Source of the DNA: Sphagnum compactum
Taxonomy: Eukaryota
Assembly (NCBI GenBank): GCA_965153455.1
Contig: OZ234494.1
Location: 10,168,001-10,232,000, forward strand
DNA length: 64,000 nucleotides
Direction of reading: 5' to 3'
Part shown: one piece after another, positions 1,613-60,600 of the stretch
How positions within the stretch are numbered: the stretch's first letter is position 1
Layout: every line of letters starts with the position of its first letter
The notes under the pieces: model-generated
What the model was told of the DNA's origin: nothing
Seen by the model: the letters and a program-made list of their open reading frames with translations, nothing else
Databases searched by the model: none
Made by a program: the position numbers and the translations under genes

Positions 1613-4600
1613 CTCCCCCTCAAGCTCAAATCCACTTCTAGTACACCAAGCATTTTTCGAAACTTCTTTAGCTTGTCTGTACCTAAAGCCTTTGTGAAAA
1701 TGTCAGCAACTTGATCTTCGGTACTGACATGAATAAGGTCAATTCTTTTGCTAGAACTTTTTCTCTAATAAAGTGGTAGTGCACCTCAATGTGCTTTGTC
1801 CTAGCATGATAAACCGGGTTGTTAGCAAGTAGTATGCTACTAATGTTATCACAATAGATGACAACAGGAGCATCCACTGACTGTCCCAAATCTGAAAGTA
1901 GTTTTTGTAACCAAACTACTTCACACGCAGCAATTGCTGCACCTCTGTATTCTGCCTCCGTGCTTGATAATGCAACTGTTGGTTGTTTCTTACTGCTCCA
2001 ACTAACAGCACCACTCCCAAAAGAAAACATGAAACCACTAGTTGATCTTCTATCTGAAACATTGCCAGCCCAATCAGCATCTGTGTATCCATGTACTTGT
2101 AACTCGCTCTTGGCTTCATAGAAAATTCCACAATGTAAAGTATGTTTTATGTACTTCAATATGCCCCTCACTGCATCCAAATGTGGCTTTCGTGGTGTTT
2201 GCATGAATTGACTCACCACTCCAACTGCATAACTCAAATCTGGCCTTGTGATGGTCATGTAAATCAAACTCCCCACTATGCGTCTGTACATAGTGGTATC
2301 CTCCACGAGGTCTCCTTCATCTGCACTCAACTTCACATTTTGCTCCAATGGAATTGAAATGGGTTTATAACCCGTCATCCCATATTTGGACAATTTGTTC
2401 AAGGCATATTGCCTTTGTAATAACCATATCCCTTTAGGGGATTGGATTACCTCAATGCCGAGGAAGTAACGCAACTCTCCCAAATCCTTCATTTCAAACT
2501 TTTGCTTCAAAAGCTTCTTCAAATCAGAGATGTCTGCATCACTATCTCCTGTGATAATCAAGTCATCAACATAGATGACTATGACTACAATCCCATGATC
2601 TGTCTTTTTCACATATAGTGAAAAATCTGCATTGGATGTTTGAAATCCACTTGTGACAAGATACTGACCTATCTTGTCTGACCAAGCTCTAGGTGCTTGC
2701 TTCAAGCCATACAAAGCTTTCTTCAACCTACAAACCAAATTAGGATGTGTTTGGTCCACATAACCTAGTGGTTGTTCCATGTACACTTCTTCTTGTAAAT
2801 CTCCATGAAGAAAAGCATTCTTTACATCCATTTGATGTAAAGACCATCCTTTTGCTGCAGCCATAGCAATGATTGCTCTTATAGTTGTCATTTTGGCAAC
2901 TGGACTATAGGTCTCCTCATAGTCTATGCCATACGTTTGGGCATAACCTTTGGCAACCAATCTTGCTTTGTATCTGCTCACAGATCCATCTGCATTGTGT
3001 TTGACTTTGTACACCCATTTGCACCCAATTGCTTTCTTGTCTTTTGGTAAAGCTACCAATTCCCAAGTAGCATTCGCATCCAAAGCCGCCATCTCTTCAT
3101 CCATGGCATTGTCCCACTTAGGATTTCCAACCGCTTGTTCAAAACAAGTGGGTTCAACCTCTTGTATAACTCTCACCATGTATGCGTAATGATGAGCTAC
3201 AAAGCCATCATATGTGAGTCTTTGTATAGGGTACTTGACTCGTGTGGATTTTCGTACTCCAATGTTGTTGTCAGGTGTTTTCAAAGCTTTCTTGATCATC
3301 CGAACTCCAGGAGTAGTAATTGAGGTGATTCTTGATTCTTCACCCTCACTCTTCTCTGACTCACTTGATTCACCATCTACATGAAAATTTCTAGATGATG
3401 TTTGTGAACTACCATGTACCATGTTTGAAGATCTCAATCTTCCTTTCCATGGAGTGCTATTGGACCCATTAATTGAAGACTCTTGTGGTCCACTAATTAA
3501 TTGTGATTCTTGTTCCACATTTGATGAAACATCACCATTTCTAGCTTCTTCATCTTCTGCTACCTTCAATGGTGAGTACCAACTAGCCATCTCATCAAAC
3601 ACAACATCTCTACTCACTTGCAACTTCCGAGTGGAAGGGCTAAAACATTTATATCCCTTTTGTTCTGAGGAGTATCCAATGAAGATACATTTCTCAGCTT
3701 TTGGGTCTAGTTTTGATCTCTTCTCATCAGGAACATGCACGTATGCAATGCAACCAAACACTCTGAGGTGTGAAACATCGGGTTTCTTGCCTGTGAATTT
3801 TTCTTCAGGTGTCATGCCATGAACTGCCGTTGTGGGTGTTCGATTCATGATGTAAACTGAAGTTGCTACCGCTTCAGCCCAAAAGTAATTTGGCAAATTC
3901 TTCTCATTCAACATGGCACGTGCTATTTCTACAATGTGCCTGTTTTTCCTTTCAGCAACTCCATTCTGTTGTGGGGAATAACTACATGAGTACTTCTTTT
4001 GAATTCCATGCTCCTTCAAGTACTCACTGAATTCATTTGAAAAATACTCTCCCCCTCCATCGGACCTTAAGCACTTGATGCTCACACCTTTCTCCTTCTC
4101 CACCATTGCTTTGAAATTCAAAAAATGTTGAAACACTTCACCTTTGTGTTTCATGAAGTAGACCCACACCTTCCTTGTGTGGTCATCAATGAAACTCACG
4201 TAGTACTTGCATCCTCCAATGGATTCTGTCTTCGTGGTCCACACATCTGAGTGGATCATTTCCAAAGGTTTGGAACTTACATGAGTTGTTTGAGCTGGGA
4301 AAGGATGCCTAGCTTGCTTCCCCAATTGGCATGCTTCACAAACCTCTGACATCACCTCTTCTGCTCCAAATTTGGGAAGACCTCCAACAAGTTTTTGTTT
4401 CTCCATGAGCTTAAGACGTTGGAGATTAACATGGCCAACTCGCTTGTGCCAAATTCCAATGTCTCCAGCTCCTTTTCCATGTGTGAATAACATGGAATTC
4501 ACCTCAGGCATGTTCACATCTAAGGTGAACATTCGTCCATTCCTTTCCCCTTTTGCAATCAATTTGCCTTGGTTCTTCATGTCTTCCACAAAACATCCAT

Positions 4601-5879
4601 TTGGGTTGAATGTCACCTGTAAACCTTGTTCCACCATTTGGCCTACGGAGACCAAATTTTTTGTTATGGTTGGAACATGAAGTACATCTTTCAGGTACTT
4701 TGTTTGCCCATCTTCCATGGACAATGGCACCTTGCCAATTTGTGTGATGGGATGTGTAGTGTCATCACCAGTTTCCACAAACCCTGGTGTCTTCAAATCT
4801 TTTACGTCTCTAAACCATTCTCCATGGCTAGTCATGTGGTTTGAAGCTCCAGAGTCCACATACCAGACATTGTTGTCTGATACACCTCCTATCATTGAAT
4901 TTGCCATGTGCTGCATCACAAACAGTTGCTCATCACCTTGATTGTTTGTTGATGCATAATTCCCTTGTTGCAGCTTTCCATTTCGTGCATCATGCTCCCT
5001 TTGATAACAGTTCTTTGCCATGTGCCCAGGTTTCCCACAGTAGTAGCAATTTGAATCGCTATTTGGTTGTTGACCTTGATGACTTCCACCACGACCTCCA
5101 CGACTTCCTCGACTTCCTCTTCCTCCAAAGTTTCCTCGTCCACCTCCATGAGCTTGACCTTCATGTTGATGATGTCCACCATGCGAGCTTCCGTGTCGAC
5201 CTCGAAATGAGCTTTTACCACCTCTACCTCTACCTCTATTGGTATTTGAGTAGAAAGCACTTTCTTGTGATCCTCCATTGGAAGAAGTACCAACAATTCT
5301 CATCTCTTCACTTATAAGTAGTGTTATTAAGTCTTGGAAGTTGGGAAATGTTTCCCGAACTGCAATTGAGGTACGGAACTGACTATAGTCTTTTCCAAGT
5401 CCATTTAAGGTCACGGCCACTAAATCTTCATCATCTACAGGGGCTCCTATAGATGCAAGAGCATCTGCAAGGTTTTTCACCTTAGTAGAATAGTCATTGA
5501 TGTTCATCTTGTTTTTCTGTAGATTATGCAACTCTTGCTTGAGCTGCATTTTTCGGGCTTATGTATTGGTGCTGTACATCTTCACCAATGTATCCCAAGC
5601 TTGCTTGGGTGATTTTGCATCTTGAATATGCACAATCATGGAATCAGACACACTCACAGAAAGCTAATACAAGACTTTCCTTGCTTTTTCATGCCAAGTT
5701 TTATTGGCTTGAATTTGTTGTTGTGTGGGGTTTTCTAGGAGAGGAGGTTCTTTTTCATCACCAGTTATGAATTCCCAGTAGCCTTTCCCCATCAAGAAAT
5801 TCATAATCCTAAATTTCCACACTTGGAAATTGTTCTTGTCTAGTTTCTCAATTGCAATTTGAGAAAGACCGTCCGCCAT
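1585..5879 (-). pseudogene. Copia gag-pol polyprotein (gag, CCHC knuckle, protease, integrase, RT, RNase H) with 2 nonsense codons and 1 frameshift
   Basis: Starts MADGLSQIAIEKLDKNNFQVWKF. TAG at 5664-5666 and TAA near 5560 interrupt gag. Motifs: CYYCGKPGHMAKNC, WYVDSGAS, WHKRVGH/CEAC, RSDGGGEY, QQNGVAER, YVDD, DADWAG. A 1-nt loss near 1741 shifts the C-terminus; the restored frame reads IDLIHVSTEDQVADIFTKAL...LSLRGSVENSSSTS* with its stop inside the 3' LTR. Confidence 0.95.
1613..1621 (-). promoter_or_regulatory. Polypurine tract of the copia element
   Basis: Minus strand GAGGGGGAG abutting the 3' LTR. Confidence 0.9.
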
Positions 5880-15358: not shown

Positions 15359-18300
15359 TTGCGCGTGTGCTTGTGGAACATCCATGGGGCCGCTATCACA
15401 AAGCTAGAAACACATGAACATCTGCTTGACCTATTTCAACATGTTGACGTTGTTGCTTTGACAGAAACACATCACTTCCTGAGCGATACATTCCCGGTCT
15501 TACCGGGGTTCTGCTGTTTTGATGTTGCCAGGCCTGTGACTCCACAAGGTGTCGTTCGAAAGCACAGTGGAGGCATTGCGGTACTAGTTAGGGAAACATG
15601 GGCAAATAGTACTGCTGTTTGGAAGACTGCAAGGGATGGGACTAGGATTTGGCTGCGCTTGGGCAATGCTTTCCAAAGGCCTTTGTTCCTATGCATAGTA
15701 TATGCTGCTCCAGCTCGCCATATGCGGACAGCAGCCTGTTTGAACACATATGCCAAGAGGTTGGAGAAGCCATGAACTTAGGCGTTGTGCTTCTTGCTGG
15801 GGATTTCAATGCAAGGACAAGCACAAACATTGATTTCATTGATTGTAGTCAACTAGCAAATGTGCTGCTGGTGCCACAAGCCATTGAGGACACCCTGCCC
15901 AACGATATGCTGGAGCACTAGAACTGTGACACTGTCACGGCTGGCTGGCATCGTGAGTTCCTGGATCTCTGCAGAACTACTGGGCTGTTCGTCCTCAATG
16001 GCCGCACACCAGGAGACATATCAGGGGAGTACACATGCCTATCCAATAAAGGTTTTAGCACTGTGGACTATTTTCTTACAATAGCTGACCAATTAGAGGG
16101 TGTCAAATGCTTAGAAGTTAACTGCGATGAAAAGTACTCAAGTCACAAAGATGCACACTCTGATCATAGACCATTGGTACTTACAATCACACAGCAGTGG
16201 CAACCCCCTCCTGTTCAGCAAAAGGCAATCAAACACCTACCACGTTTCAAATATGACACTGCCAAAGCAGCCGAGTTTAACAAGAGTGTACAGCATAACA
16301 TCGGTGTCTGGGCAAGCCTAGATGTACTTGATGCATCTGACGAACAAACAACAGTCATCTGTTACAACAATGCATCACACAATCTGCAGAAGAAGTGTTT
16401 GGAAATAGACAAGTGGCCTTAGGAAAAGCAATAAAGCACAGCCACAAACCCTGGTTTGACACAGAATGTCGCCAGACCAAAAGCCAGTTTGCTAAATTGT
16501 CACATGCGCACCCAGATAGGCAGGTCAGACTTAAGCAAATGAAACAGTTGTACAAAAGGAAAAAACGTGCTTATGATGTGCTCAAGGCTAAACAACTATG
16601 TGGTTTAGCGAAGGCGAATCCTGCAGCATTCTGGAAGCGGTACCGCAAGCGCACTGAGGGTGTCAATGGCATCACCAGTGAAGCGCTCAGGGATGGCTTC
16701 CAGCAACTGCTCCAGCCTCCGGCGGCATCAACCACAGCAGGAGCTGTGACAGGTGCCGTTATTCAAGCCCAGTGGGTCTCCTTTCCACCCAATGGTATTG
16801 ATTGCGAACAGTTGAATGTTGACATCACACTAGTTGAAGTACAACAAGCGTTCAAAAAGCTAAAACGACACAAAGCTGCAGGCATTGATGGCATCAAACT
16901 AGAGTTCCTTTTGGATGCGACTGATGCCCTGCACCAACCATTATTGATTGCTTTTAACAAAATTTTGCGCGAGGGCTATTGTGAATCACTCTCTGTTGGG
17001 ATCATACATGCATTGTACAAAGGGGGTGACTGTTGTCAGTTTGACAATTACAGGGGGATCACAGTAGGACCAGTTTTAGCCAAGGTGTTTGCAATGATTC
17101 TTGAGTCCCGCATCAGTCAATGGGCGGAGACCAATGATTTACGCGCAAAGGGACAGGCTGGTTTCAAAAAGGACTTTAGGACAACAGATAACTTGTTTAT
17201 TCTTCGCACTTTGACCGAACAAGCCAGATTTCAGCAAAAGAAGCTATACACTTGTTTTGTGGACTTCAAAAAAGCCTTTGATACAGTACCAAGGGACCTG
17301 TTGTGGCAAGTGCTGGAGGGACTTGGCATCAATGGGCGGATACTGGAGTGCTTGTGCTCCATGTCTCGTCAAGACCAGGCCTGCCTGCACCATCCAGAGG
17401 AGGGGCTCACGCCCACTTTCCTCTGTCGCATCGGAGTGAAGCAAGGATGCCCCCTCAGCTCACTCCTGTTTGGCCTCTTCATAGATGGCCTAGAAAAACG
17501 GCTGAATGCTTTAGAGGGTGACACACCACCAATGTTGGGACAGCTAGCTGTTCGTTTGCTTTTGTATGCAGACGACTTAGCTCTCATGTCACACACTCCT
17601 GCTGGATTGCAGAAGCAACTGGATGTCTTGCAAGCTTTTTGCTATGAGCGTCAGTTGACTATGAATGTCAAGAAAACCAAAGTTGTTGTGTTTGAAGCAC
17701 GCAAGTCTGTGTGTCAAGCTTTTTAGTATGAGGGCGAAGCTATAGAGCAACTAAACTCTTTCAAGTATCTAGGTGTTGAGCTGCACGGCACAAAAGGTAT
17801 GCAAGCGGCAATACAGCGGTTAGCAATGTCAGGGAAAAAGGCAGTTTTTGCATTGCGGCGCAGATGCGCAGAGTTGCGCATCTTTGACCCAGCATTACAA
17901 TGCCAGCTGTTTGATGCACCAGTCAAACCAGTGCTTAGCTATGGGTGTGAAGTATGGTCAGACCACATGGCATGCGAACAGTTAGAGGTGGTTCATCGGG
18001 CTTTTCTGAAGTTGTTGCTGGGGTCAGCACCACGACATCCAGCTACGTCGTGCTGGCAGAGTTTGGCAGGTTTCCCCTAGAAATATTTTGGTGGCAACAG
18101 ACCATGCGCTTTTTCTCACGTGTCAGTTCTGAGGTAGACTCAGATCGCATGCTCAGGCTAGCCTATGATGTACAGCTGCAGTTGCTTACAGCCAGGCGAA
18201 AAGTCTTACTCGGGAACCAGAATGCTGTGGGTAGAAAGAGCTGATTGCCTGCTTGCTGGCTAGCACAAGTAAATGAACGACTGTCGACGTACAATTTGTG

Positions 18301-24438: not shown

Positions 24439-27405
24439 TGGGGAACCAGCTCACCAAGAAGGAGAGAGACCAGGTCAGAGACTTGCGAATTAAGTATGAA
24501 CATGTGTTTGCATTCTCGATGAAAGACTTAGGTAGGTGTAAGACCATGTAGTTCTCTATAGACCTTACAGATGAAACACCCATCTATTGGAAGAGGCATG
24601 GGTTGAGCAAGCATAAGTGGGAACTGGTAGATGAAAGATGTAAAAAGCTCCATGAGGCTAGTCTCATTTAACCATCAAGTTCTGATTTTGCAGCCGCTAC
24701 AATAATGTCAGCAAAGAAGGATTCAGCTAGATTATGGACTAAGAAAAGGATGTGCGGGGATTATAGGCCTTTGAACTTGGTTACATCTCAGGACAGGTAC
24801 CCCATGCCCATCCCTGAAGAACTGTTTGATAACATTGGAGAGTTAAACATCTTCACAATTGTGGATCTGAGGTAAGGTTTCAACCAGATTGTGCTCGCTA
24901 CGAAGGATCGCAAGAAAACGACATTCCATGGAAGCAACAAGTTGTGGAAATGGCTTGTGATGCCTTTTGGATTGAAGAATGCACATGTCTTCTTTCAGCC
25001 AGTCATGGACCAGGTTTTTGAAGGGGCAGATTTCTTGAAGTGTTACATAGATGACGTCTTAATGCATAGCAAGGGAATCCTGCAACATTTGGCTCATCTT
25101 GAAGAGTTATTCAAGAGGCTCCACGAAGTCAATATGAAGATCCATCTTAAAAAGTGTGAGTTTGTTGTCACTTCAGTAGTCTACCTTGGCCACAAAATTT
25201 TGCCAAATGGTATTATGGCTCATTGGGCCAAAGTAGTAGCCATTTTGGAGATGCCCAATCCTACTGATGTTCACACTTTGAGGAGCTTCATCAGACTATT
25301 TAATTATTACAAGATTTATGTCCAAGCTTTCAGTACTATTGTTCATCCTCTCTATGCATTGTTAAAGAAGGATGTTGCTTGGACATGGAGTGAAGAGGCT
25401 TAGGAAGCTTTCAACACACGCAAGGAAAAGCTTTCAGAGTTCCCCATTCTGAGAAGACCTGATTTTAGCAAGGTCTTCATTCTACACACTAACTGGAGTG
25501 CTCTTGGTATTGGTGTTATTCTTGGCCAACTTGATGAGGAAGGCAAGGAATATGTTATCGCCTATGCATCCCAAAGCAACAACAAGGCTGAGAGCAACTA
25601 TTCTTCATACGAGGAGGAATGTCTTGCTGTTGTATGGGCTGTCATACATATATTTATGGCACCAAGTTCACTTTGTATACCGACCACCAGCCTATCAAGT
25701 CGTTAATGACCAATAATAAGCTTATTAGTAAGTTAGCTTGTTGGGCGCTTATACTTCAGGAGTATGAGTTCAAGGTTATTCACCGACCTGGTATTACACA
25801 TCAGAACACGGATACCATGTCGCGGAGACCCTTCACTACCTTTGAAGATTTGTCAAAAGCCAGGTAAGACTTCAACCAGATTCCAATAGTACATGTATCT
25901 TACGCATCTAGTTATCTTGCACTACTACAATGTAACCTGGTTGAGCATCCCACTGTGGATATATGGGAGGACTTGGACACTTTGAGGTTTCTTTAGCCTG
26001 GGGAATACCCTCCCCAAGTTACATCAAGTCATCGGGATCACATACAACAATGGTTCAAACGCTACTCATGGAGAGACAATCACCTCATGCGATGCTTACC
26101 AGAAGGCGATAAAGTGGTTCCTCCACCACATGAACGGCTTGGTCTTATTCAGAAGGTACACTTGGAGCTTGGACATTTTAGAGTTAAGCGTACTTATAGC
26201 CTTCTTGCTCCTCATTACCCTTGGAGAGGTATGTATGCTCAAGTCCGAGATGTCATTGCTAGGTGTGAACAATGTGATAGAGTGAGAACTTCCTTTTCCT
26301 CTCGACAATTCACGCTTTCTCCAATCCCTATTCAGGGCATGTTTTATTGCTAGTCATGTGATTTAGCTAGAGAGTTACCATAGACCTCTAGGGGTAATGT
26401 CTACATCATGATTATGATTGAGCATTTTTCAAAGTGGGTCGAGCTTGTTGCGCTGCCGGACAAGTAATCACACAGCACTAACTAGGCTTTCTTACAACAG
26501 GTCCTAAGTAGGTTTGGGGCTTGTGCTAAGTGCCTTACTGATCAAGGATCAGAATTCAGAGGAAAATTCCAAGACCTACTTGATCATGCTCTCATTAACC
26601 ATCGTTGGACTTCAAGGGATCATCCCCAAGTGATGGCCTTGTAGAGAGGTTGGTTTAGACATGCAAGAAAGGATTTCGGAAGATTTGCTTCACTGGGAAC
26701 AAAGAGGATTGGGACCTACTTCTACCTTACATCGCCATGGGTTACAGGATGTCCAAGCACGCTTCTTTGTCTCATTTCGTTCCTTACTTTTTACTTTTTG
26801 GGAGACATCCCATTCCACCCTCTTCCATTGTTGTTCAAATGGACCAGGTTGTGGACTTGGACTCCCCAGCCACTTGGGCTAAGGTCATCGCAGAGAATGC
26901 TACTCTATTAAGGAGGGTTATGCCCATGGCCATGGAAAACTTGTCCATTGCACAACATCGAGACACCTTACGATATGCACACACAAAAGGTGGCAGTTAC
27001 AAACCTAAGGTGAGACAATTTGATGTTGGTGACTTTGTGTATTTCCAACGGCAACCTAATGATACTTTAGACATTTCTTCTGGTCGTACTATCTTGAGGA
27101 TTAAGACGATCAGGCCTTCAGGTGTGTTGGAGTTGCAAAGAGCCGACGGACGCACAATTCGGGATCACTCCAAAAACGGTGCACCTTGCCGCTTGCTGAA
27201 CTTAGATCCTACCATCATCACGTCAATTTGGATTCCTCCACTTGGCTATCCACGTCAGGTATGTCAAAGGACAGATGATGCTGATCAGATGCTGCTTTGC
27301 GATAATTATAATGGTGGATACCATCTATTTTGCTTCAAGCCGGAGCTCACTCAAGTTCCTGCTGGCATTTGGTACTGGTCATCATGTTTTCCTGCAGCAC
27401 CTTGA
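24439..27405 (+). pseudogene. Degenerate gypsy pol: RT, RNase H, integrase (HHCC, DDE) and C-terminal PHD finger
   Basis: RMCGDYRPLN, DRYPMP, VMPFGLKNA, YIDD (25044-25055), KKCEF, YLGH; EECLAVVWA, TDHQP, WALILQEYEF; H..LGHF...CEQC; TDQGSEF; QVCQRTDDADQMLLCDNYNGGYHLFCFKPELTQVPAGIWYWSSC; many stops and frameshifts. Confidence 0.93.
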
Positions 27406-42517: not shown

Positions 42518-44590
42518 ATGGCCACAATGGTTGTTCCTACTTCTGCTCCACATGTAGCATCATTGAGGAGCAGCAGCAGCCAGGGGCGGCGGCGACAGGA
42601 TGGTAGTAGAAGGGCGGCTTCTGTTGCGCTCCTCTCAGCTGCCACAACTTCCAATTGCTCCTCGCTTGCTTCTTCTCTCCAGGAGACAAGAGGCATCTCT
42701 TCTTCTTCTTCAAAACTCAGGTTTCTTTCTTCACTAATACTCCATCCTATCCTACTGCTCTCTCCTCCCTTGGATGTGATTTTCCTGTTGCGTAAAAACT
42801 TCTTGCTAGCCCCCCTCCCTCCTTCACATTCAGTGTGAGATCTCAATGTTTGTTGCATCATCACCTTGTTGTGGCTGTTGTTGTTTAGATGGTTGCAAGG
42901 AAGAGAAGGGAAGGAGCTGCAGGAAAAGCTACAAAACAAAAGAAATCCAGCAATCAAGGAGCTTCAAAGGCAGTCATCAAGGACACAGCTTCTCCTTCTG
43001 CAGTGCCAGGCACAGAGGAGCTCAAGATGGAAGCAAATGGGCTGGTTGAAAAACTCAGCTGTGCCATCATCACTAGGAGCTTTCAGCTCCACAAGAACCC
43101 ATCCCTCAAAGAGACCCAATTCTGTAAGCTCTTTTGCACATTCAACAACCAAATCAGAAAAGAGGAGGGAGAGCTTGATCTATGGAAGTATATATATGTA
43201 GGCATGATTTTCCTGCTTGCAGGCAGATTGGGTGATCCCCATTCATGTGCATCCAGACTGTGCAAGCAAACATGGGCTCGAGTGAGCCACGTGTGGTAAA
43301 TCTGGCATGGGTGGCAAATCTTGAGTGAATGGAAAATCAAAAGTTCTTTGTTCTTGTGAAGTTGGAAATCTTCTCCTCTTTTGCTGTTCTACCTTCGGTT
43401 TTCTCAACCCTTTAGACTGAGATAAACCTATGAGTGTGGTGGGGGTTTTGGGTTTTCTACCAAGAGCTCCACCTTGTTCTTCATAGCCTTTTAGGGGTTT
43501 TTTGCTGGAATTGGATATGACTGAGAGCATCAGCTTTCTTTCAATGTGGTCAGGCGTGGCCAAGTTTGAGTTTTGAGGCCTAATTTACTGATCCAAATCT
43601 TTTGCTTGCCAGAAGCCGAGAAAAGCAGGTCTTAGGGCAGCAGCAAGTTTGCAGAAGAATGGAGGCACCATTGCTGCTCTGTTGGACACCAGAAGTGACG
43701 AGGAGTGGGACACCCTAGGGTCTGACATAGCTTACCTTACGAGATCAGCCAGGCTTGTGCAATGGTACCCGGGTCACATTGCCAAAGCTGAGAGATTGCT
43801 GAAGGAGCAGCTCAAATTGATGGATGTTGTAATTGAAGTCCGGGATGCCCGGATCCCCATTGCAACAACTCATCCAGAGATTGACACCTGGATTGGTGAC
43901 AGGATGAGAATCTTGGTCCTAAATCGGGAGGACATGATATCGAGCTCTGATAAGAATGCTTGGACACACTATTACATAAAGCAAGGGATCCACCCTGTCT
44001 TTACAGATGGACGACGAGGGGCTGGGAGCATGAAACTGGCAAGGATGGCAAAATCTGTAGCTGTTGATATCAATGTGAAGAGAAAAGCGAAAGGCCTTCT
44101 CCCTCGCAATGTGAGGGCTGCTGTAGTTGGGTACCCTAATGTGGGAAAATCATCAATCATAAACCGCCTGCTCAAGCGAAAGATGTGTGAAACAGCTCCC
44201 CGGCCAGGAGTTACCAAAAGCTTGAAATGGGCCAGAGTTGCTGATGGATTAGACCTCCTAGATGCACCGGGTGTTTTGCCAATGCAGATTCTGGATCAAG
44301 CTGGGGCAACAAGGTTAGCAATCTGCAATGATATTGGTGAGAATTCATATGCGGTGGCAGGAGTTGCAGCAGTTTTAGTCGAGATGATCAAGAGGATGCC
44401 AACTGCAGGGCCTGGGGTCTTGGAGATGAGGTACAAGATGAGTGTGGGGGATATGACAGGTGAAGCTTTCTTGGAGGAGCTTGCACAGCTGTTGTTCCAG
44501 GGGGATGTGAATCAGGCTGCATACCGGGTACTGCGGGATTATCGAGTAGGCAAGTTTGGGTGGATTGCTCTCGAAAGGCCTCCTTCTTAG
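42518..44590 (+). CDS. DGP3: Chloroplast ribosome-biogenesis GTPase RbgA/YlqF (DAR GTPase 3-like)
   Basis: Predicted exons 42518-42720, 42889-43123 and 43613-44590 join in frame (about 471 aa); Ser-rich transit-peptide-like N-terminus; WYPGHIAKA, EVRDARIP, NREDM, GYPNVGKSS, PGVT and DAPG (circularly permuted GTPase); the 5' exons are less certain. Confidence 0.9.
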
Positions 44591-45747
44591 ATCTGATTAG
44601 ACAAATCCGCAGGTAATGGATCTAGACTTTTGGTCTCTGTTGTATTATGGCACAATTCTTGAATTCAAACCCCCTGTTGGAAAACAGATTCACTGCACAG
44701 AGTTCCCCACCTTTGATTCACATTGCAAGTGGAAATGTCAGAACCCAACTGGAACCAGCACATGACCACCAGTCCCACCTAGGAAAAAGCCTGAAGAAGA
44801 CACCAGGGTCCAGAATTGGTTAAGTGTAGAGTAAGTGTGAGGCCATGCACTTTACCAGAATCTGACATAAACTTTGTATTTCCCAATTCCCCAAATTGTG
44901 TTGTTTGGTGTTTTTTTTGCAATATGTCCATTTTTAGATTATCATTGAATTGTTTTAGGGCTAGGGTTTAATGTTTTGAGCAAGTCTTTTTGGTATCTCT
45001 CTCACTTCACCTTCTTTCTACCTCTTGCCCTAATAGGTATTCAACAGACATCCAATTGGACTACTGTGCACCAATTGCTTCACAAGTTTTCTTGTTTCAT
45101 GTATCATGCCATGGGTTTTTTTACATTGTGATTTAAAATTCGACAAGACCAAAACTTATCATTGGGAATTGAATCGAGGCATGTGAAAAAAAATGTGACC
45201 ACATGGTTATAGCTATTAAGTTGTAAATTAGGGTTGAGAAGAATGGTTAGGTGGACAACACAGTTGGGAAGGAAATTTTTTCCATAGCTTGGAGCTTGGT
45301 GCTTAATGGTGTTGCAAGTTGGACATAACGTAATTTGATGCATAAAACCAGAGATTTGGAAAGAGAAACTTGCATTGTATTTGTGTTGATGAGAACAAAA
45401 AGAACAAGATTCAAACTTGTTTGTCAATGGGTATATGTAAGATTGTGCCCAACAAATTGCCATACTGAATTCACAATTGCTAGCTTAAAACATCATATTT
45501 GGAAATGGAGCCGCGTATCAAACCTTTAGAAGATTATTTGTTGGATCTATAAACACAATTGTCATTATGATAAAACCTTCGGATTCCAAGTTTGCAATAT
45601 TTCGTCATGTGTTTTATGAAGATTTCGAATGAGATTAGATAACAATTTTGAAATAAATAGATATCGTTTGGGGATAAAAACATGACAATAATGATACATT
45701 TTCCATTATGATCTTTTGAAATGTTTTGTTGATGGGTAGGTAAAAGC

Positions 45748-48293
45748 ATGATAAGCAAAGGAAACTCTCTAAAAGCAGGCAACAAATATGATAAGGACAA
45801 ATCTGAACAAGTGGCGGGCATTGTTCATGCCCTAAAAGAAGGTGCAACGAAAAAGTTGAAACCTGGAGAAAACCTAACATCCTCGGTGTTGCAAAGGCCA
45901 ACTGATAATTTGAAGAGCTTATACATCTTGGGGAAGAAGCTTGGTCAAGGACAATTTGGTATAACATATTTGTGCACGGAAAAGGCGACGGGTAAAGAAT
46001 ATGCTTGCAAAACTATCGCCAAAAGAAAACTAATATGCCAGGCCGATGTGGATGATGTTAGGCGTGAAATCCACATTATGCATCACTTGTCCGGGCATCC
46101 CAACATTGTCACAATTAAAGGGGCATATGAGGATGCAAGTGCGGTGCATTTGGTAATGGAGTTATGTGCGGGAGGAGAATTATTTGAACGCATTGTTAAA
46201 AAGGGACATTACAGTGAAGCAAAGGCTTCCGAACTAGCACGGACTGTTGTGGATGTTGTTGAGGCTTGTCATTCTTTAGGGGTAATGCATCGAGACTTGA
46301 AGCCTGAAAACTTTTTGTTACTTAACCACAATGAAAACTCCGTAATGAAAGCTACTGATTTTGGGTTGTCAATTTTTTTCAAACCGGGTGAAACCTTCAA
46401 AGATGTTGTAGGGAGCCCGTACTATGTAGCTCCGGAGGTGCTTCGCAAGCATTATGGTATTGAAGCCGATATTTGGAGTGCTGGGGTCATTATTTACATT
46501 CTCTTATGCGGGGTTCCACCATTTTGGGCTGATAATGAACAAGGGATTTTTGAAAATGTCAGTAAAGCTGAATTTGATCTTGAATCTGAACCTTGGCCAA
46601 ACATATCGGAAAGTGCCAAAGATTTGATCCGAAAAATGCTGAACCCAAGTCGGGCGAGACGTTTGAAAGCTCATGAAGTGTTGAGTCACCCATGGATCCA
46701 CGAAGAGGGTGTCGCTCCTGATAAGCCCATGGATTCAGCTGTACAATCTCGACTCAAACAATTTTCCGCCATGAACAAACTTAAGAAGCTTGCGATTCGA
46801 GTTATAGCGGAATCCATGTCAGAGGAAGAAATAGTAGGTTTGAAAGAGATGTTTAAGACAATCGACACTGATAGTAGCGGTGCTATTAGTTTTGAAGAAT
46901 TAAAAGAAGGTCTCAAAAAAGTTGGTTCCAATCTAACGGAGGCCGACATTCGAGACCTCATGGATGCTGCTGATATCGATCAAAATGGAACCATTGATTA
47001 TGGAGAATTTTTAGCTGCAACATTACATATCAATAAGATCAATCGCGAGGAAAATTTGTTTGCAGCTTTTAAGTTTTTGGACAAGGATAATAGTGGGTAC
47101 ATCACGATTGATGAGCTTCAACAAGCATGCATACAATACAACATGGGGGATATCCCAATTGAAGATTTGATCAGAGATGTGGACCAAGACAATGATGGAC
47201 GCCTTGACTACCATGAATTTGTTGCAATGATGCGCAAAGGAAATGAAGATGCTTCTCAAACAACACGAACCAACTTGCCTTTCTTTGAGGTTTGTTTTGT
47301 TTCTTTAATTTCCCCATAACACATTAATTGGGCTTACAAAAGTGTGGTTGATAAAAATATTTTGAAAATTTTAATATATTTTCTGGTGTGTTGCATCTCA
47401 TTTTAGATTGATGTTCTACTTGTTTCTACCAAACATACATTAAATTCTTTATGTCAAATTAAAAGTACCTCAATAATCAAACTCATTGACATGTTGGGGT
47501 CAAAGTTTATTGAATTTTGGAAAAGACTTAACATTATCAAAAGTACACAAGATTATGTTTTTGGATTTTAAAGTCAATGGACAAATAGAGGTCAACACAT
47601 TAATTTGAAATTAATGGAAACAATATGAAACGTCATTTAAGTAATTTAAATCTGAAATAATGTTTTTGTTATGGGAGATTAGAGATTGCATATGTGAATT
47701 TTCATATCACTTTGTTGGTCATTTGTCACATTATCACATCGTGATGCCACATGAATCAATTGATTGATTCCAACAAAAGGTTTTATGACATGAAAAATTT
47801 CATTCTTTAAATTATATTTGTGATCTTGGCCATTATATTTTGTTCACATGATTAATTGGCATTTCATAATTTGAACACGACACACAAGATGCTATAATAT
47901 GCATAAAATTTGTATGTTAGATTACACAAAATGCACAAAGTTGAAATGATGATTTCATTGTGTCAACTTTGCAATATCAGTGAAAATGTCCTCATCAAGT
48001 TTAAGTGAAAATTATGCCAAAAAATAAGTTATGACATACAAGTTTGTGCAGAAACCCATTCTTTGTTAACATTTACATGGAATTGCAATATAATGCATAA
48101 GTAATAAGTATAACTATTGTTTAAATATCCTACCTGTATAAAAACACATGACTAATTCTTCCCTTTTTTCCATTATTTACTATATGCATTATGAAGTTGT
48201 ATAATAAAGATATGTATTTGTTATTGGCAGGCCATTCAACCTACAAAGCCAAAAGCCAAATTGCCAATGGATAATTTGGATTGGATGGGCTAA
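45748..48293 (+). CDS. CPK: Calcium-dependent protein kinase (group I-like); kinase and four EF-hands in one exon
   Basis: [27 protein letters not shown]; junction [16 protein letters not shown]-hands [48 protein letters not shown]. Probable splice 47289 to 48231 gives AIQPTK...DWMG*; the unspliced ORF ends at 47319. Confidence 0.95.
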
Positions 48294-52853: not shown

Positions 52854-54055
52854 CAGTGTCGAGCAGTTCTCACTTTTTTTTGAGAACTGCCGGTTCCGGT
52901 TCTTTCTGCCTCTATGTGAGAATGGGGTCAATTTTTTGATTTTTAAAAAAAATTAGCGTTGAAGAGAACCTACCCAATTTTTAATATTCTAAAATATATA
53001 TTATAATCCAGTTCTCAAGGTACTCAGTTGTCACTCATTTGAGAACAGTCAATTTTCAAAATCAGTTCTCAATAATTTGGTTCTCAAGTTTTTTTTAAAT
53101 CATAAAAGAAAAACAATGAAAACAAAAAACTGGATTATTAAACAATTAAAACTGAGCAAATAAGGGGTTTGATGCCTTGTTTTGTTAGTGGTCCAGTTTT
53201 CAAAAGAAGCAGTTGATTCAAGTCCGATTTTCTCAAATTTCTGAACCTCCGGTTCAGATATTTCAAAACCTAACCTAGAACCTGAACATAACCTGCAATT
53301 AACCTGGACCTGTCAACACTGGTTTTTTCCACCATTGAGCGGTTCTCAAATGCTCACCCAATTCTCAACCCAGCCCGGTTCTCACAATGAGAACTGATTG
53401 ACACTTTTAAATGTGAGAACCGGACTGAAAATCGACCTCAGGTTCTCACATGACCCAGAACCGATTATGAAAACCGGTTTAAATGTATACACATATATAT
53501 ATTTTTGAGAACGGACAGGTTCTTTGATAGAACTCAGATCCGGTTCTCAGAGTTCTCTGTATCATTTATTGGTTCCTCTTGTTCTTCTTCTCACTTAGGA
53601 CTGCTACTCTTGTCCTGTTGCTTTTTTTCTCATACTGCTATTACTTTTCTCCCATTATTACTCTTCTCTCTTATTGTTATTACTCCTCTTTATTACTATC
53701 ACTTCTTTCCCATTGCTCTTATTCTTTTCCTGTTGTTGTTACTTTTCTCACATAGTGTTGCTCTTTTCCTGTGAAGAAGTCATTTAATTAATAATTATTA
53801 AAACTGATTTTAATTAAGGAAAATTTTAATAATCAGGTTGTGAAAGCCAGATGTGAAAACAGATTGTTGTTGTATATATGAGAATCGACTTATTTGAGAA
53901 CTGGGTGAGTTTTTAAAAAATAAAAATTTGATAACCTCACCGGTTCTCGTCAGCCCAATATATATATATATTAGAGAACCGATCAGGTTCTCATAACATC
54001 ATGAGAGAACCGGAACCGGCTGGTTCTCACAAAAAGTGAGAACCGCCCAACACTG
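52854..54055. mobile_element. Non-autonomous hAT-like element
   Basis: TIRs CAGTGTCGAGCAGTTCTCACTTTTT and AAAAAGTGAGAACCGCCCAACACTG; many internal GAGAACC motifs; imperfect 8-bp flanks GTTCTTTC and GTTTTTCC. Confidence 0.75.
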
Positions 54056-54120
54056 GTTTTTCCCCAACATAATGAACATTTTCAAATCTAAAGGATGTTA
54101 CAAAAGTATAAGGTACCTTA

Positions 54121-54433
54121 CACAGGTACCTTACAACGCGATTTGTGATGGAGTCGCAGCGCAAGCGGCGGCAGCAACAGGTCTGACTGCCTCCATACTA
54201 CCTGTACGTTGCACCAACTCTCCTGTGAAAGCTTGAGATCCAACATGAGCAGCAGCAGAGTTGCAAGGAGAACATGAAGCAATGCACCGGCACATCAGGG
54301 TTTTCACAGCAGCAACGGCGCACCAAACCCTAATCTGCAGAGACGAAAGCGGGTATCGTACATTCTTGGGGGTGGGGGGGGGGGGGGGGGGGACCGAAAA
54401 CTTCTAGCCTTACAAATCTGTAAGGTACCTGTG
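54121..54433. mobile_element. TIR-bounded element carrying an inverted copy of the adjacent aspartate kinase 5' region
   Basis: Perfect TIRs CACAGGTACCTTACA (54121-54135) and TGTAAGGTACCTGTG (54419-54433) with TA on both sides; interior 54135-54409 is the reverse complement of about 54536-54803. Confidence 0.85.
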
Positions 54434-54646
54434 TAAGTATTTAAACACAGGATCTAATTGGACGGTCACGATGTAGTCTCTTTTTGCAGAGCATACGTTG
54501 ACCATGTTTGTTGCATGGAGATGGACGGTGGCGATTGGCGAGAAGTTTTCGTACCCCCCGGCCAGAAAGTACAATACCCGCTATCGTCTCCGCATATTAG
54601 GGTTTGGTGCAAACCCTAATGTGCCGTTACTGCTGTGAAAACCCTG

Positions 54647-57600
54647 ATGTGCCGTTGCATTACTTCATGTTCTCCTTGCAGCTCTGCTGCTGCTCTTGTT
54701 GGATCTCAAGCTTGCACAGGAGAGTTGGTGCAACGTACAGGTAGTATGGAGGCGGTCAGACCTGCTGCTGCCGCTTGCGCTGCGACTCCATCGCAAATCG
54801 CGTTCTACTTTTCGACTTCACGCCGTTGCACTAAGCTGCAATTCGCTGGCGGAGCTGACTTCTCTCCTTCGACTAGGGTTAAAGCTTCGTCCTTGGAATG
54901 GTCTGCTTCTTTTTCCTCTGGTAATGGAACGAGCTGGATTGAGAAATTCGGTTTTTGCAACTGCAAAAATGGGCCGAGACGACGACTTCTTCATCACGAG
55001 GCGCGGTGGGTGTGTTGTGATAACAACGGTGGTTTGGTGGGACTAGAGGAAAGAGTACTGGAAGGAGGTGGTGGTGCTGCGGCGGCAGGTGGGAAGAAGA
55101 GATCGCAGCAGCAGCAGCTTTACACTGTTGTCATGAAGTTTGGCGGATCCTCGGTGGCCTCAGCTGACAGAATGCGAGAAGTGGCAGACCTGATTCTCAG
55201 TTTCCGTGACGAGATTCCGATCATTGTGATGTCTGCTATGGGCAAGACCACGAATAATCTTCTCAAGGTGCCGTTTTCTCTCACATTTTGCCGCAGTTGT
55301 TTGTTGCAAAAAAAAGGTTTCGTGGGGGCGGATCCTTTTGCACAAGCAAAACCCCCTGGGTTTTGTGTCTTAGTGTGAAAGCAAGGTGATTCAATGGCGA
55401 GCAGATGTTGTTGTAGCATGTTGCAATGTTTGCAGCACTGATGTTTTGTCCACCTTTGGAACCAGGCAGGGGAGACAGCCATTTCTTGTGAAGTGGCAGA
55501 GTGCTGCTCTATTGTGGAGTTCAATCTTATAAAGGATCTCCATCTGCGGTACTGATTACTTTCCCATCCAGGTTGCAAAATGTTGTAACCATCTGCGTTC
55601 TCTTTATGATGTTATAGACAATTGTGAAGAGGTTTAGATTGCAAGTTCCAAGAGCTAATTGGTCTTGAGGAAGCATGACTGCTCTAAGACTTGTACACAT
55701 AAGCTGTTAATGGAATTCCTTCCGGAATATGTTGACAAGCATCATGACCATGTTGCACTGTGCACAAGAGTTGAGGGGATGCGATGCTGGGTATTGCAGA
55801 ACTGCTGATCAGCTGGGGATAGATCGCTCTATTATTGCAGGTATCCTGTGTACCTCATGCATGCCTTGTTTTCAAACCAGATTTTAAGATCGAAGTCTTG
55901 AGTTTTTTCTGAAACTAGGAGCCTGGTGCTGCCTTTGACATTTCCAATCATGCATGGCAGGACTTGTGCTGTATACTCTCTTTGCCGTTACTACATGCTG
56001 GCTCCATATGGCCTCCCCTTGCTTGATTCATGGATTGGGAGATGATATCATATGAGACTGTACCTGAAACACCCTGGGCACTAGTACAGAGTTGTCTACT
56101 TGTTTGGTCTAGAGTGTAGGGTATGTCTGTCAAATAGTAGAGATTCTGTGTTTTTTTATTCCATGGAGCAGATGTTGGATTCGACAGAATACAAGTGACA
56201 GCTTTTGCTAGGGGATGGTGGAACCGGGTTCTTGCAAACCATAATTGTTGAATGTCATGACTGAAATGCGTTGCTTTGTTTTGGAGCAGGACTTTTAGAA
56301 GAGCTGGAGAGTTTGCTGACCAGAATTGGTTCAGACGGAGAGCTGTCAGACTGCACTAAGGATGAGTTGGTTTCCTTTGGAGAACGACTCTCGACACGCA
56401 TTTTTGCCGCCTACCTGAACAAAATTGGAAGACATTCTCAGCAGGTCTGTCTGACACAATTTATGGCTGGTTTTATCTAGTGTTATGTGCATTTTTGCTA
56501 GGATGATTTTTGAAGGTCCAGCTTCAGTCCATGGAATTGAGTATATGAAGATAGCTGTTGTGCCTTCCCCTGTGATTATATAAATACTCATTTGCAAATG
56601 GTCCAAATAAATTATAGGTCTTCCTTGTGGTGATTTGGCGTGCAGTATGATGCTTTTGATTTAGGAGTCATCACAACTGATGAGTTCACAAATGCTGAAA
56701 TTGTGGAAACAACATATCCCACAGTTTTGAGACGGCTTCAAGAGGAGTCAGAGAGGTGCAAGACGTTTGCAAGGGGTCCAACAATACCAGTTGTGACTGG
56801 ATTCCTTGGCAAGGTAGGGGACATCATGAAACCTGCTACCTGTCCTTTTCACCATGCTAAAGAAGTTTGACTATGTCTGCAAGCTTATATGTTCTCCCAC
56901 TGTGAATTTGTGCTGACCTTTGCATAACATAGGTTGTATAGGATAATCAAATCTCTATCCAGCACAAATCCTGGTTGATTTAACAGAGCTTGTTGCAGCT
57001 GGAATGAAGATTCTATTGGCTTTTTTGATTTGCTACTCTTCTTGAGTGCTAGCTGTCATCATGACTGAGTCTTCATGTTGCCTTTTGAAATCTGGCAGAA
57101 GCTCAGAGTGCAGATTTTTATTGTACTGATAGCATTAAGTTTGAGCAGATGATTATACACTTATGTACATGTGCTGTTGTGAAGTGATGAAGTCAGTTTG
57201 GACCTAGTGGTAGCTAGTGACTGCCATTTGTCATGATGGTGATGGTCTGAAGTTTGTGATTGACACTCACAAGGTTACGACTATGCTTTTTCATGTTATA
57301 TTTCTTCTGGTGTTTTTTGGGATTGTAACACAATGGTTGCCTTGTTTTTGTCTTGGTCTTTTCCTGTTTCCTCACCTTGGTAACCTGATGGCCCCTCTCC
57401 AGTTCTTGTCCAGTTTTCTTTCTACTTTATCTAGTAAGAAGTTTTGTAGATGATCTGGTTTTTCCCAATTTCTGTGGCATGTACCTTGCAAGTGGGTGTG
57501 AAACCTGATATATTTGGTAACTCTAATAAATGACAAGAGGAGCCATTAGAAATACACTTGCACACCCACTTGCAGGGAGCTGATGAAGTCTGTAGGGATG

Positions 57601-60600
57601 TTATGGTAGCTGGTCACTGCCATATGCTTGCCATTGAAGTTCTTTCGACATGCATGTGACTGCTGCTGTTTGTTCAGATTGCACCTCGGTTTTGTTTTTG
57701 TTTCTTTTTTCTGTTCTATAGGGTTTGGTTTCTTCTTTTTCTTGTTCACTGAAATCTGTACAGCCTTGTTTATCAGATCATCTCTCAATTCTGTTTATGT
57801 TGACTTGAATCGTTAGTATGAAGAAGTTCTCAGGAGTTATGAAGATGGATGTGTTTCTGTTGACTTTTCAATCTGATTGAGCTTGAATAACACAGATGAG
57901 CCATCCTCTGTGCACAGGGCATGTCCACAGGACTGGTGACAACTCTTGGTAGAGGGGGAAGTGACTTAACAGCCACAGCCATTGGGAAAGCACTTGGACT
58001 CCGAGAAATTCAGGTGGCTTAGCTCCCTGCACCCAATTGCTTTACTTTGCTTTTTTGATTTATCTTCATGAAGGTCCTAAGTCCTCTCATTGGTTTTGTG
58101 AAGGAATTATGGCTCTTCTCTGCAAAAGGACTCTCTTTTTCACCATGCTCATAGTACCACATTTGTAGTCTCACCATACTTTGCTATCATTGCTTTCCCA
58201 GTTCTTTCATTGTGTAATGCTAAAGAGGTCTGTGGCTAGGAAAGTCCTGTTTAGTACTTTATGATCTGACTACAGAATGGTCCTTAAAGAATGTTGGTAC
58301 TAATATGTGAGGTTTGTTCACATTGTTTAGAGAATGTGAGTGCTCATCACTCAGATGTGCTTTCTCACATGGTGATATGTCTACTGTCAAGTATATGGAG
58401 TACCAAAGCAGAAGATTAAGTATTCCGTGTCTTTGTCAACCACCTGTTGAAGATTCCCCATACAGGAAGGCTTGCATGCAATCTTTGTATGAGTGTGAAT
58501 CTGAAGCTTTGTGTATCCTAATGCCTTCAATGAGGATATTCAAAATTGCAGCTCATTGAGGATGATTGCTGTTTGAGTTCCCATCTGGCAAATCTTGATT
58601 GTCTTTGATGAGAAGACTGATGTTGAGGCTCACTCTGGGCAGGTGTGGAAAGATGTTGATGGGGTTTTGACATGCAACCCCAGTATTTATGGCAAAGCTT
58701 TACCTGTTCCATTTTTGACCTTTGAGGAAGCATCAGAGTTGGCTTACTTCGGTGCCCAGGTACTTTTTCCACAGACCATTGTTACTTAAGTTGATTAAAT
58801 CAGCAGGCAGGCAGGCAGATGATAGAGACACTTGATGTTCCATATGCAGATGTCATGCAGAGTAACAGGGGCTCTTAAAAGATGTGGTTTACAGGAGGCA
58901 ACTGGTACTCACACAGGGTGGGATGTATTTTAATTCAAGAGTCTGGAACAGATTGAAGTCAAGCTATTTGTAGGAGCTGGTGATTATGATGATGTGTGCC
59001 TAGTATGGAGCTCTGACCAAGGTTTGATACTGGCAGGTGTTGCACCCTGAATCAATGAGACCAGCAGAAGCTGCAAATATCCCTGTACGTGTTAAAAATT
59101 CATACAATCCACAATCACCGGGCACCCTCATTACGAGAAACCGAGATATGAGTCAGGTCTGGTTTTCTGGACTAATTTGATATGGTTGTGGCTATGATTA
59201 TATGGTTCTGTAGATTCTGGATGCAAAATCCATGAGATGAACAAATTGATTGTGCCTTGTCTGAGAATTCTCAAACCACACCATGATGTTGTAGTTCCTC
59301 AAGGGCATTTGGACTGTTCTCTATGTTGGTGAGCCTGTTTCCCAGCTAAGTGTGGATGTAAACTTAGAGATTTTGGGGAGCTCAAGTAAGGGTGCTCTCA
59401 TAGAAAGTTCAATCCTTCATTTAACCTGTGACATTGTCATGATTTCAGTCAAACATAACAAGCATTGTGCTGAAACAAAATGTGACAATGGTGGACATTC
59501 AGAGCACCCGCATGTTAGGCCGAGTTGGCTTCTTGGCAAAGGTCAGCTTTGCACTTACCATGTGAACTATTTTTGGTGGGATCTGGTTTCACAGCTGATA
59601 TTGATTCTGAATTATTGGCAGATCTCATTCTGACTGTGATTTCTGTTATTTATCAGAGACTGAAAAGCTTTGTGAGTGTCATACAAGGGTGACTGACATG
59701 CTTGTCTTCCAGGTTTTCACCACATTTGAGAAATTGGGCATTTCAGTTGATGTCCTTGCCACAAGTGAGGTTAGCATCTCGCTGACACTGGACCCTTCCA
59801 AGCTATGGAGTCGAGAACTTATCCAGCAGGTACAGCTTTCACCTGCTGACCTCTTGTGACTGAAATAATTCTTTGTATCTGTTTTGATGGAATTTGCATT
59901 GTTGCTAAAGCTTCATGAACATGGCCCAGCAAGCATGGACAGTAGTTTTCTTGGAGTGATTTTCACCTGCAGCTTTGTGGTTTTTACATTTCTGAATGAG
60001 GCAATCATTATGTTTAGATCAGGATGCAGGATCAGTTTTGAGAGGATAATTCTATACAATTCCCATACAGAAAATTGGGGAGAAGATAATATTCCTTTAG
60101 TATGATTACTGAATTTCCAGACTGTGGAAACAGACTAGCTTTTGTGGTTAAGATGAGATGCTTGTCCCCTTGGACAGGTCTGCGGTTTTTATTCTTTGAG
60201 GATGATGTGTTCCATTTGCCTTACTGAACAAGTCTTTGAGATCTGATGGATAGCTGACAAGGGCCAGAAGGGACTGGAGGTGGAAAACAGGAATTGGACA
60301 AAATGAAGACAGAGCTGCAGAGTATTGGTGCAGTAGTGAATTTAGTGAAGAGGCGTTCCATCATTTCCCTTATTTGCAATGTCAAACGCTCCTCTCTCAT
60401 CTTGGAGAAGGTAAAACAATATGTTCTATATTCCTATTGATTTGTGGTCATGGGAACTTGAAGTGATGTTGCTGGCTTGCAAATGCAAATAGGATGAAGA
60501 GTGGTGCCTTATCTGCTGGGGTTGATGGCCTGATCCATCTTAAAACCTTCTTTGTGCTGGATCTGATCAAACAGGTTTTTGAGGTGTTCAACAAGAATAA

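Follow-up and report, generated by a model that had tools for sequence, protein, structure and literature searches.

How does a gene come to have an inverted copy of its own beginning lying just upstream of it, and does such a copy do anything? The question is raised by an aspartate kinase gene, which encodes the entry enzyme of lysine, threonine and methionine synthesis, in a 64,000-nucleotide (nt) stretch of DNA from the bryophyte Sphagnum compactum (contig OZ234494.1, positions 10,168,001 to 10,232,000; 'the window' below means this whole stretch, and positions are counted from its first letter). An earlier note, made from the letters alone, had seen there a gene fragment captured between the ends of a small transposon, with the potential to form a silencing hairpin or to serve as an outward-facing promoter. 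The answer reached here is a different one. We infer that the upstream copy, the left arm of the inverted repeat, is probably a templated inverted insertion, the product of snap-back or template-switch synthesis at the tip of a palindrome that was already there, and in polyA RNA it looks functionally silent today. The anatomy of the repeat, the site without the copy, the direct repeats, the lack of further copies of the bracketing 19-mer in the sequence searched and the RNA coverage are direct observations; the mechanism, the order of its steps and the neutrality of the outcome are the conditional parts of that statement.

The inverted copy and the site that it entered

That the promoter, 5′ untranslated region (UTR) and first codons of the gene are present a second time, locally and inverted, is borne out by repeat search and gapped alignment alike. 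The left arm, 54132-54409, is the reverse complement of the right arm, 54537-54807, in an alignment that joins the four collinear pairs found by the repeat search, namely 54168-54322/54620-54774, the longest (155 nt, 94%), 54320-54376/54554-54610, 54132-54176/54763-54807 and 54387-54409/54537-54559. Over 259 aligned positions there are 240 matches and 19 mismatches, and the four indels are of 3, 12, 15 and 1 nt. The right arm does cover both of the candidate ATGs that had been pointed out, 54647 and 54746, and the hairpin potential for which the earlier note had proposed an RNA fold is strong: 54100-54820 gives −522 kcal/mol, as against a shuffle mean of −238 (z −37.6), and none of 20 shuffles was as good. 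The left arm is itself bracketed by a shorter inverted repeat (Table 1). The earlier description of this as 'perfect 15-bp' terminal inverted repeats (TIRs) 'with TA flanks' was right about the existence of the brackets but not about their extent, as the repeat is perfect over 19 bp and the TA lies inside it.

What does the locus look like where the copy is absent? With up to 3 mismatches allowed, the 19-mer of the brackets has two matches in the window, both of them here (0.01 expected), and a scan of a metagenome contig collection gave one locus, L001, on a 109-kb contig of a related taxon. Of the other cargo-bearing copies that the earlier note had recommended looking for by their TIR, none came to light in the window or in the metagenome contigs, and the one locus that did is the ortholog, without the cargo. 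L001 3013-6019 matches window 54408-57414 at 95.8%, L001 2608-3019 matches window 53725-54135 at 88%, and blocks further upstream are also collinear. The right arm is present (L001 3142-3415, 92% to that of the window), whereas in the 6 kb of L001 compared with the window the left arm was not found. At its place there is the 19-mer, then GATT, then TGTAAGATCCCTGTTTAAG, contiguous at L001 3001-3042, a 19-4-19 quasi-palindrome in which 16 of the 19 stem positions pair; a 54-nt stretch of L001, treated as a DNA hairpin, gives −8.4 kcal/mol (z −3.7). Because both 'TIRs' exist, 4 nt apart, where there is no left arm, they are part of the target site and did not come with the inserted DNA, and the brackets are the halves of a target-site palindrome that was split by the insertion. 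Compared with L001, the window is longer by 279 bases, which are made of the right-arm copy and have the 7-bp direct repeat CCTTACA on either side. When the two flanks in the window are joined computationally, the product aligns over its whole length with L001 2982-3050 (91%).

The palindrome itself differs between the two loci, and in a patterned way. In direct orientation window 54408-54445 matches L001 3013-3050 at 33 of 38 positions, and all 5 differences either flip the loop (GATT to AATC) or pair one of the three mismatched stem positions, with the result that window 54409-54437 is an exact reverse complement of L001 3001-3029 (29/29). Such a 29-nt pattern is the signature of template switching in a quasi-palindrome, though with two taxa compared the change may lie in either lineage. 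Three ordinary substitutions in the right half of L001 together with a loop flip would equally yield the same picture. In those parts of PMC13100816 and PMC10710096 on which we draw, quasi-palindrome template switching homogenises arms, inverts the loop and makes several changes per event.

Table 1. Features at the 5′ end of the aspartate kinase gene, in window coordinates
Feature	Coordinates	Strand	Remarks
Left palindrome half (earlier left 'TIR')	54117-54135	.	CTTACACAGGTACCTTACA; perfect complement of 54419-54437; identical 19-mer at L001 3001-3019; pre-existing target-site DNA
CCTTACA, left copy	54129-54135	+	The single L001 copy (3013-3019) aligns to both window copies
Extra DNA absent from L001	54136-54414	-	279 bp: inverted copy of 54537-54807 plus second CCTTACA (54408-54414)
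G5-T-G19 run, inner end of copy	54368-54392	+	Template has only C6 (54554-54559)
Spacer between arms	54410-54536	+	127 nt; original DNA upstream of the gene, collinear with L001; contig of run X9 has 0 differences over 54407-54536
Loop AATC (54415-54418) and right palindrome half (54419-54437; earlier right 'TIR')	54415-54437	.	
Right arm, the template of the copy	54537-54807	+	~150 bp of promoter, 5′ UTR from ~54687, first 62 nt of coding sequence from ATG 54746
Exon 1, coding part	54746-55268	+	Likely start codon to splice donor; at the donor, 7 RNA reads diverge from the window after 55268

How the copy may have been made

A break, or a stalled replication fork, at the tip of the palindrome, with its 19-bp stems and 4-nt loop ~400 bp upstream of the start codon, would have been the beginning. 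The 3′ end at the break could then have folded back, with the present 127-nt spacer as the loop, and found a priming site in 1-2 nt of homology (CC) at the proximal edge of the promoter. Synthesis from there would have copied ~271 nt, i.e., promoter, transcription start and 62 nt of coding sequence, with the DNA just downstream serving as inverted template, and the joining of the new strand to the other end on ~1 nt of homology would have left CCTTACA as a 7-bp target duplication. The perfecting of the palindrome stems and the flipping of the loop may have been due to the same template switch or to a separate one. If the same, synthesis of the nascent strand would have run through the right arm, continued over 29 nt of the palindrome and only then returned on TAAG, and one event would explain the palindrome changes also; alternatively, a plain insertion with 7-bp duplication could have entered a palindrome that was already perfect, and the outcome of the two courses would be indistinguishable.

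What argues for a scheme of this type? The inner junction of the copy adjoins original DNA, the spacer is exactly the distance from the insertion point to the near edge of the template, and the copy runs away from the break, a geometry that fits the prediction of snap-back priming. The inserted DNA is an inverted copy of nearby sequence, the near edge of which is 127 nt from the inner junction, as is to be looked for in a templated insertion, and the extra DNA is the copy alone, without transposon-internal sequence. Junction homology amounts to CC at the inner end and to one A at the outer (TA-A with one mismatch), which is too short to tell from chance. As to precedent, the portions of two papers used here describe snap-back synthesis-dependent end joining as yielding inverted repeats across the junction (PMC2943611), and 'filler' insertions templated by nearby flanks, whether copied forward or as the reverse complement, as a hallmark of polymerase-theta end joining in Arabidopsis (PMC10923293).

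A retro-copy from mRNA was also thought of, and is ruled out: the copy was made from DNA, because it includes sequence ~150 bp upstream of the limit of RNA coverage. For the palindrome, neither a Helitron 3′ hairpin nor a hAT excision footprint, judged on the general features of such elements, found sequence support.

The gene and where its transcription starts

The gene is an aspartate kinase, represented in seven open reading frame (ORF) pieces spread over 54746-59859, all seven of which have collinear NCBIfam aspartate kinase matches. Pieces 1, 2, 4, 5 and 6 match TIGR00657 at profile positions 3-51, 100-136, 182-212, 205-257 and 250-290, respectively, piece 3 matches NF004938 at 150-200 and piece 7 matches NF006570 at 326-361. 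Pfam sees AA_kinase in three of the seven and ACT (ACT_9) in one, and the best solved-structure match of exon 1 is PDB 2cdq, 'aspartokinase', with E 8e-17. A kinase domain followed by ACT, collinear with the models, suggests a monofunctional enzyme of the plant type (a homoserine dehydrogenase part was not sought beyond 60 kb). The kinase domain starts at residue 126, as Pfam and NCBIfam cover 126-174 and PDB 2cdq covers 126-173; the 125 N-terminal residues counted from ATG 54746 gave no family match. Sequencing runs labelled 'moss metagenome' contain about one third of the words sampled from the stretch, in keeping with a moss or a near relative of mosses as its source.

Does transcription reach the copy? 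The polyA RNA run X22 carries the same species label, ~12% of its reads were examined, and 52 reads mapped, 48 of them at least 99% alike. In bins covering 54104-54664 its depth is 0 on either strand; it is 1.9 over 54665-54715, and onward to the donor it is 7-20, in an orientation that fits a plus-strand mRNA in the usual stranded library. Another run, X15, has an RNA contig with one end at 54687, and this end together with the onset of depth in X22 therefore puts the transcription start near 54690. The ATGs at 54619, 54647 and 54667 are upstream of that start or at its edge, and the first ATG clearly in the mRNA is 54746, which is likely to be the start codon; the one at 54647 is probably untranscribed. 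The portion of the right arm that is in the mRNA amounts to only ~120 nt, and the true promoter still drives the gene, from ~54687. In that promoter there are two motifs in inverted orientation, TTAGGGTTT at 54597-54605 and AAACCCTAA at 54611-54619, which we take to be telomere-box-like, and one of the two is gone from the copy via the 12-nt deletion.

The roles that had been envisaged for the repeat have no counterpart in this RNA. No transcript through both arms, of the sort that would give a hairpin, was seen in X22, where left arm, spacer and the promoter part of the right arm are at zero depth; nor was there an outward transcript from the inverted promoter copy, or read-through from further upstream. 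In a search of 53800-55000 against Rfam with E up to 1, no match fell inside 54100-54810, and the 6 weak matches, far below gathering scores, are all at 53882-54033. Within exon 1, at 54920-55174, a minority of the X22 reads have the opposite orientation (depth 0.6-2 versus 6-20), which could be weak antisense RNA or imperfect strandedness.

Transposon, artefact or silencing locus?

Pack-MULEs and Pack-type TIR elements carry a gene fragment between inverted repeats, and the resemblance to the locus described here is plain enough. Did a small non-autonomous TIR transposon, Pack-type or like a miniature inverted-repeat transposable element (MITE), with TA as its duplication, capture the 5′ end of the aspartate kinase gene, the L001 lineage afterwards losing the cargo between the CCTTACA repeats and keeping both TIRs? 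A perfect 19-bp terminal inverted repeat does surround the copy, TA is outside a 15-bp core on each side, and the sequence distances leave room for a structure older than the split from L001's taxon. However, both 'TIRs' are at the site that has no copy, the left one exact and the right one at 16/19, and the TA 'flanks' belong to the continuous 19-bp complementarity and so cannot count separately as evidence of a duplication. Outside 54117-54437 direct repeats are lacking, the sole one, of 7 bp, being inside the TIRs; there is no subterminal transposon sequence, the interior being gene copy from edge to edge; and the sequence searched, the 109-kb contig of the relative included, holds no family of copies. 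Repeats that are present at the empty site and that have no duplication outside them, together with the lack of any transposon sequence besides those 19 bp, set the locus apart from such elements, and we consider this capture unlikely; the earlier 'transposon-bounded' description is not one that we retain.

Could the left arm instead be a product of assembly, by a long-read fold-back chimera or a mis-join? There is a homopolymer run, G19, at the inner end of the copy, and 54219-54403 is covered by no mapped contig of any of four runs. Against this, contigs of an independent DNA run, X4, from the same organism but another study, match the window over 54027-54218 and 54404-54753 without a single difference, and therefore both bracket junctions are crossed. 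The arms share only nine 31-mers (54189-54227/54715-54753), and it is exactly there that the X4 contigs break, as de Bruijn assembly does when both arms exist in the genome. The 19 mismatched positions and four indels between the arms are not expected from a fold-back, and 7 DNA runs from 2 studies contain 0.78-0.97 of sampled words, all of which makes an artefact extremely unlikely. A question of a different kind is whether the repeat, real as it appears to be, acts in conditions that were not sampled as a young locus for hairpin small interfering RNAs (siRNAs) or a proto-microRNA, or as a trigger of promoter-directed silencing, so tuning aspartate kinase or its paralogs. If transcribed through, it would form a duplex of ~270 bp, at −522 kcal/mol, spanning the promoter, the 5′ UTR and 62 coding nt; that young MIRNA loci of plants can arise from genes duplicated in inverted orientation is accepted (PMC1790633, in the part drawn on), and read-through hairpin RNA can silence, as proposed for Mu killer in what we use of PMC3440606. 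But the lack of polyA depth over left arm, spacer and right-arm promoter part, while exon 1 is at 7-20, speaks against such a role, as do the absence of an Rfam family match inside the repeat, the shortness of the right-arm portion within the mRNA, and the fact that aspartate kinase is expressed in X22 and hence is not silenced in that sample. Such a function is improbable. The stretch 54362-54403, which holds the G5-T-G19 run, was masked in read mapping, and the contigs of two runs end at or beside it.

The relative's allele, age and polarity

When was the copy made, and from which molecule? In a three-way alignment of left arm, right arm and L001 (259 sites), 226 sites are identical, and the sites at which one sequence stands alone number 15 for the left arm, 6 for the right arm and 12 for L001, so that the copy may be about as old as the split of the two taxa. 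A second relative, 'organism B', is represented by run X9. Compared with the window it has 10 substitutions in the right arm and none in 54407-54536, and the window's left arm agrees with organism B at 8 of these 10. At five of the 8 (54568, 54573, 54629, 54662 and 54793) L001 has the base of organism B too, and by this comparison of sequences it is the window's right arm that changed late; at one site (54595) the pattern is reversed. Does organism B have the left arm? A 10.4-kb X9 contig covers 54407-55400 and has 33 letters further left, reaching the start of the G19 run if B resembles the window. X9 depth is 0 over ~54058-54358, but a gap of this kind, at 54219-54403, is also found in X4, from the window's own organism ('organism A'), and such gaps are no evidence either way. 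Across 54715-54753, where the X4 contigs break, the X9 contig is, however, continuous, and it follows that organism B is without a left arm carrying that identical stretch.

Several things weigh against templated inverted insertion in the simple form outlined, and against its corollaries, and they are best considered together. The insertion, at 272-279 bp, far exceeds the length of the small templated insertions that PMC10923293, in the part used, describes, the junction homologies are just 1-2 nt, and the C6 of the template has been expanded to G5-T-G19 in the copy, while in the right arms of both window and L001 the run is short. The distance between the arms (21/259) is about that between the right arms of window and L001 (18/259), and with it the polarity of the event is unproven: the copy could predate the split and have been lost in the L001 lineage by deletion between the CCTTACA repeats, and the imperfect stem of L001 could equally be due to later substitutions. 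Further copies of the 19-mer may be present elsewhere in the genome, as the search was of the window and the metagenome contigs, and the silence is judged from the one polyA library and the fraction of its reads given above. Then there are the bases at 54681, 54696 and 54754, derived ones shared only by the X9 right arm and the window's left arm. The RNA contig of X15, from a taxon near that of L001, has the other base at 54696 and 54754, and a rough count puts the chance expectation for such coincidences at ~0.1. Simple snap-back on the same molecule does not explain the pattern, and a B-like allele as template, e.g., on the homologous chromosome, or later gene conversion, is a possible explanation. 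The fuller proposal, that the copy was templated from a B-like allele by break repair off the homologous chromosome in a hybrid or heterozygous sporophyte, and that the repeat is in addition a conditional trigger of promoter-directed small RNAs, is very unlikely as a whole; if it were true, there would be a conditional trigger at the entry enzyme of lysine, threonine and methionine synthesis in a bryophyte.

Likeness to known systems

To what, then, should a templated inverted insertion of this length be likened? Set beside theta-mediated or synthesis-dependent microhomology-mediated end joining of the snap-back type, to the extent that it is covered by the sections of PMC2943611 and PMC10923293 used, it shares the copying of a nearby flank, an inverted repeat that spans the junction, an inner junction at the break, what would be priming on very short homologies, and freedom from transposon features. 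It departs from them in its length, ~275 bp as against small segments, in a fold-back loop of 127 nt, in its 7-bp target duplication, and in that the template was perhaps not the neighbouring copy, given the three bases shared with the relative's allele. In common with quasi-palindrome template switching (PMC13100816 and PMC10710096, again from parts of them) are the cluster of five differences that copying of the adjacent 29 nt as reverse complement would explain, the stem at 16/19 in one locus and 19/19 in the other, the inverted loop and the promoter-proximal site. Those events, as reported in the same parts, span tens of bases, whereas here there is in addition 271 nt from up to ~670 bp away. 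Mu killer of maize (PMC3440606) and young Arabidopsis MIRNA loci (PMC1790633) are alike in being inverted, partial, 5′ gene duplications with the potential for a long hairpin; in the material taken from those two papers, theirs are transcribed and give small RNAs, unlike the present repeat, where left arm and spacer have no polyA transcript and the gene is expressed.

The event is of a known and ordinary kind of mutation, of which it is an unusually long example, and one that comes with a comparison site lacking the copy. Its value is as a clean natural case, in the nuclear genome of a plant, of an inverted repeat whose arms measure 270 bp and which arose with no transposon involved, and there is an orthologous copy-free site to set against it. 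The insertion at the tip of a small palindrome would link short-range template switching in quasi-palindromes to far longer templated insertion, and it is a reminder that a pattern of 'TIR plus cargo' seen in a single sequence can be a target-site palindrome split by insertion. On aspartate kinase biology the evidence here indicates no effect: the gene uses its own promoter, and the copy is silent in polyA RNA.

Surroundings in the window

Directly upstream of the locus, at 53951-54057, is a MITE-like high-copy repeat, rich in the inverted motifs GAGAACCG/CGGTTCTC. Its summed contig depth is ~2000-2450 in X9, where single copy is 42, and 50-78 in X4, where single copy is 3-7, and many contigs diverge from the window at its two edges (~53960-54022 and 54056-54060). 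It is kept at the same place in L001 (2845-2939, 95%), and a few polyA reads from other copies map to it. Further upstream, 400 bp from the palindrome, 53624-53753 is a pyrimidine-rich array of ~5 degenerate direct repeats of 32 nt.

Elsewhere in the window, an intact-looking copia-type polyprotein ORF of 1291 amino acids, with gag, integrase and RVT_2, is at 1683-5558 on the minus strand, and a second reverse transcriptase ORF, with RVT_1, is at 16341-17726 on the plus strand. A PHD-finger ORF is at 26659-27405 and a GTPase-domain ORF at 43592-44590. On the plus strand at 45733-47319 there is an uninterrupted ORF of 528 amino acids in which a protein kinase domain is followed by four EF hands, the arrangement of the calcium-dependent protein kinase type.

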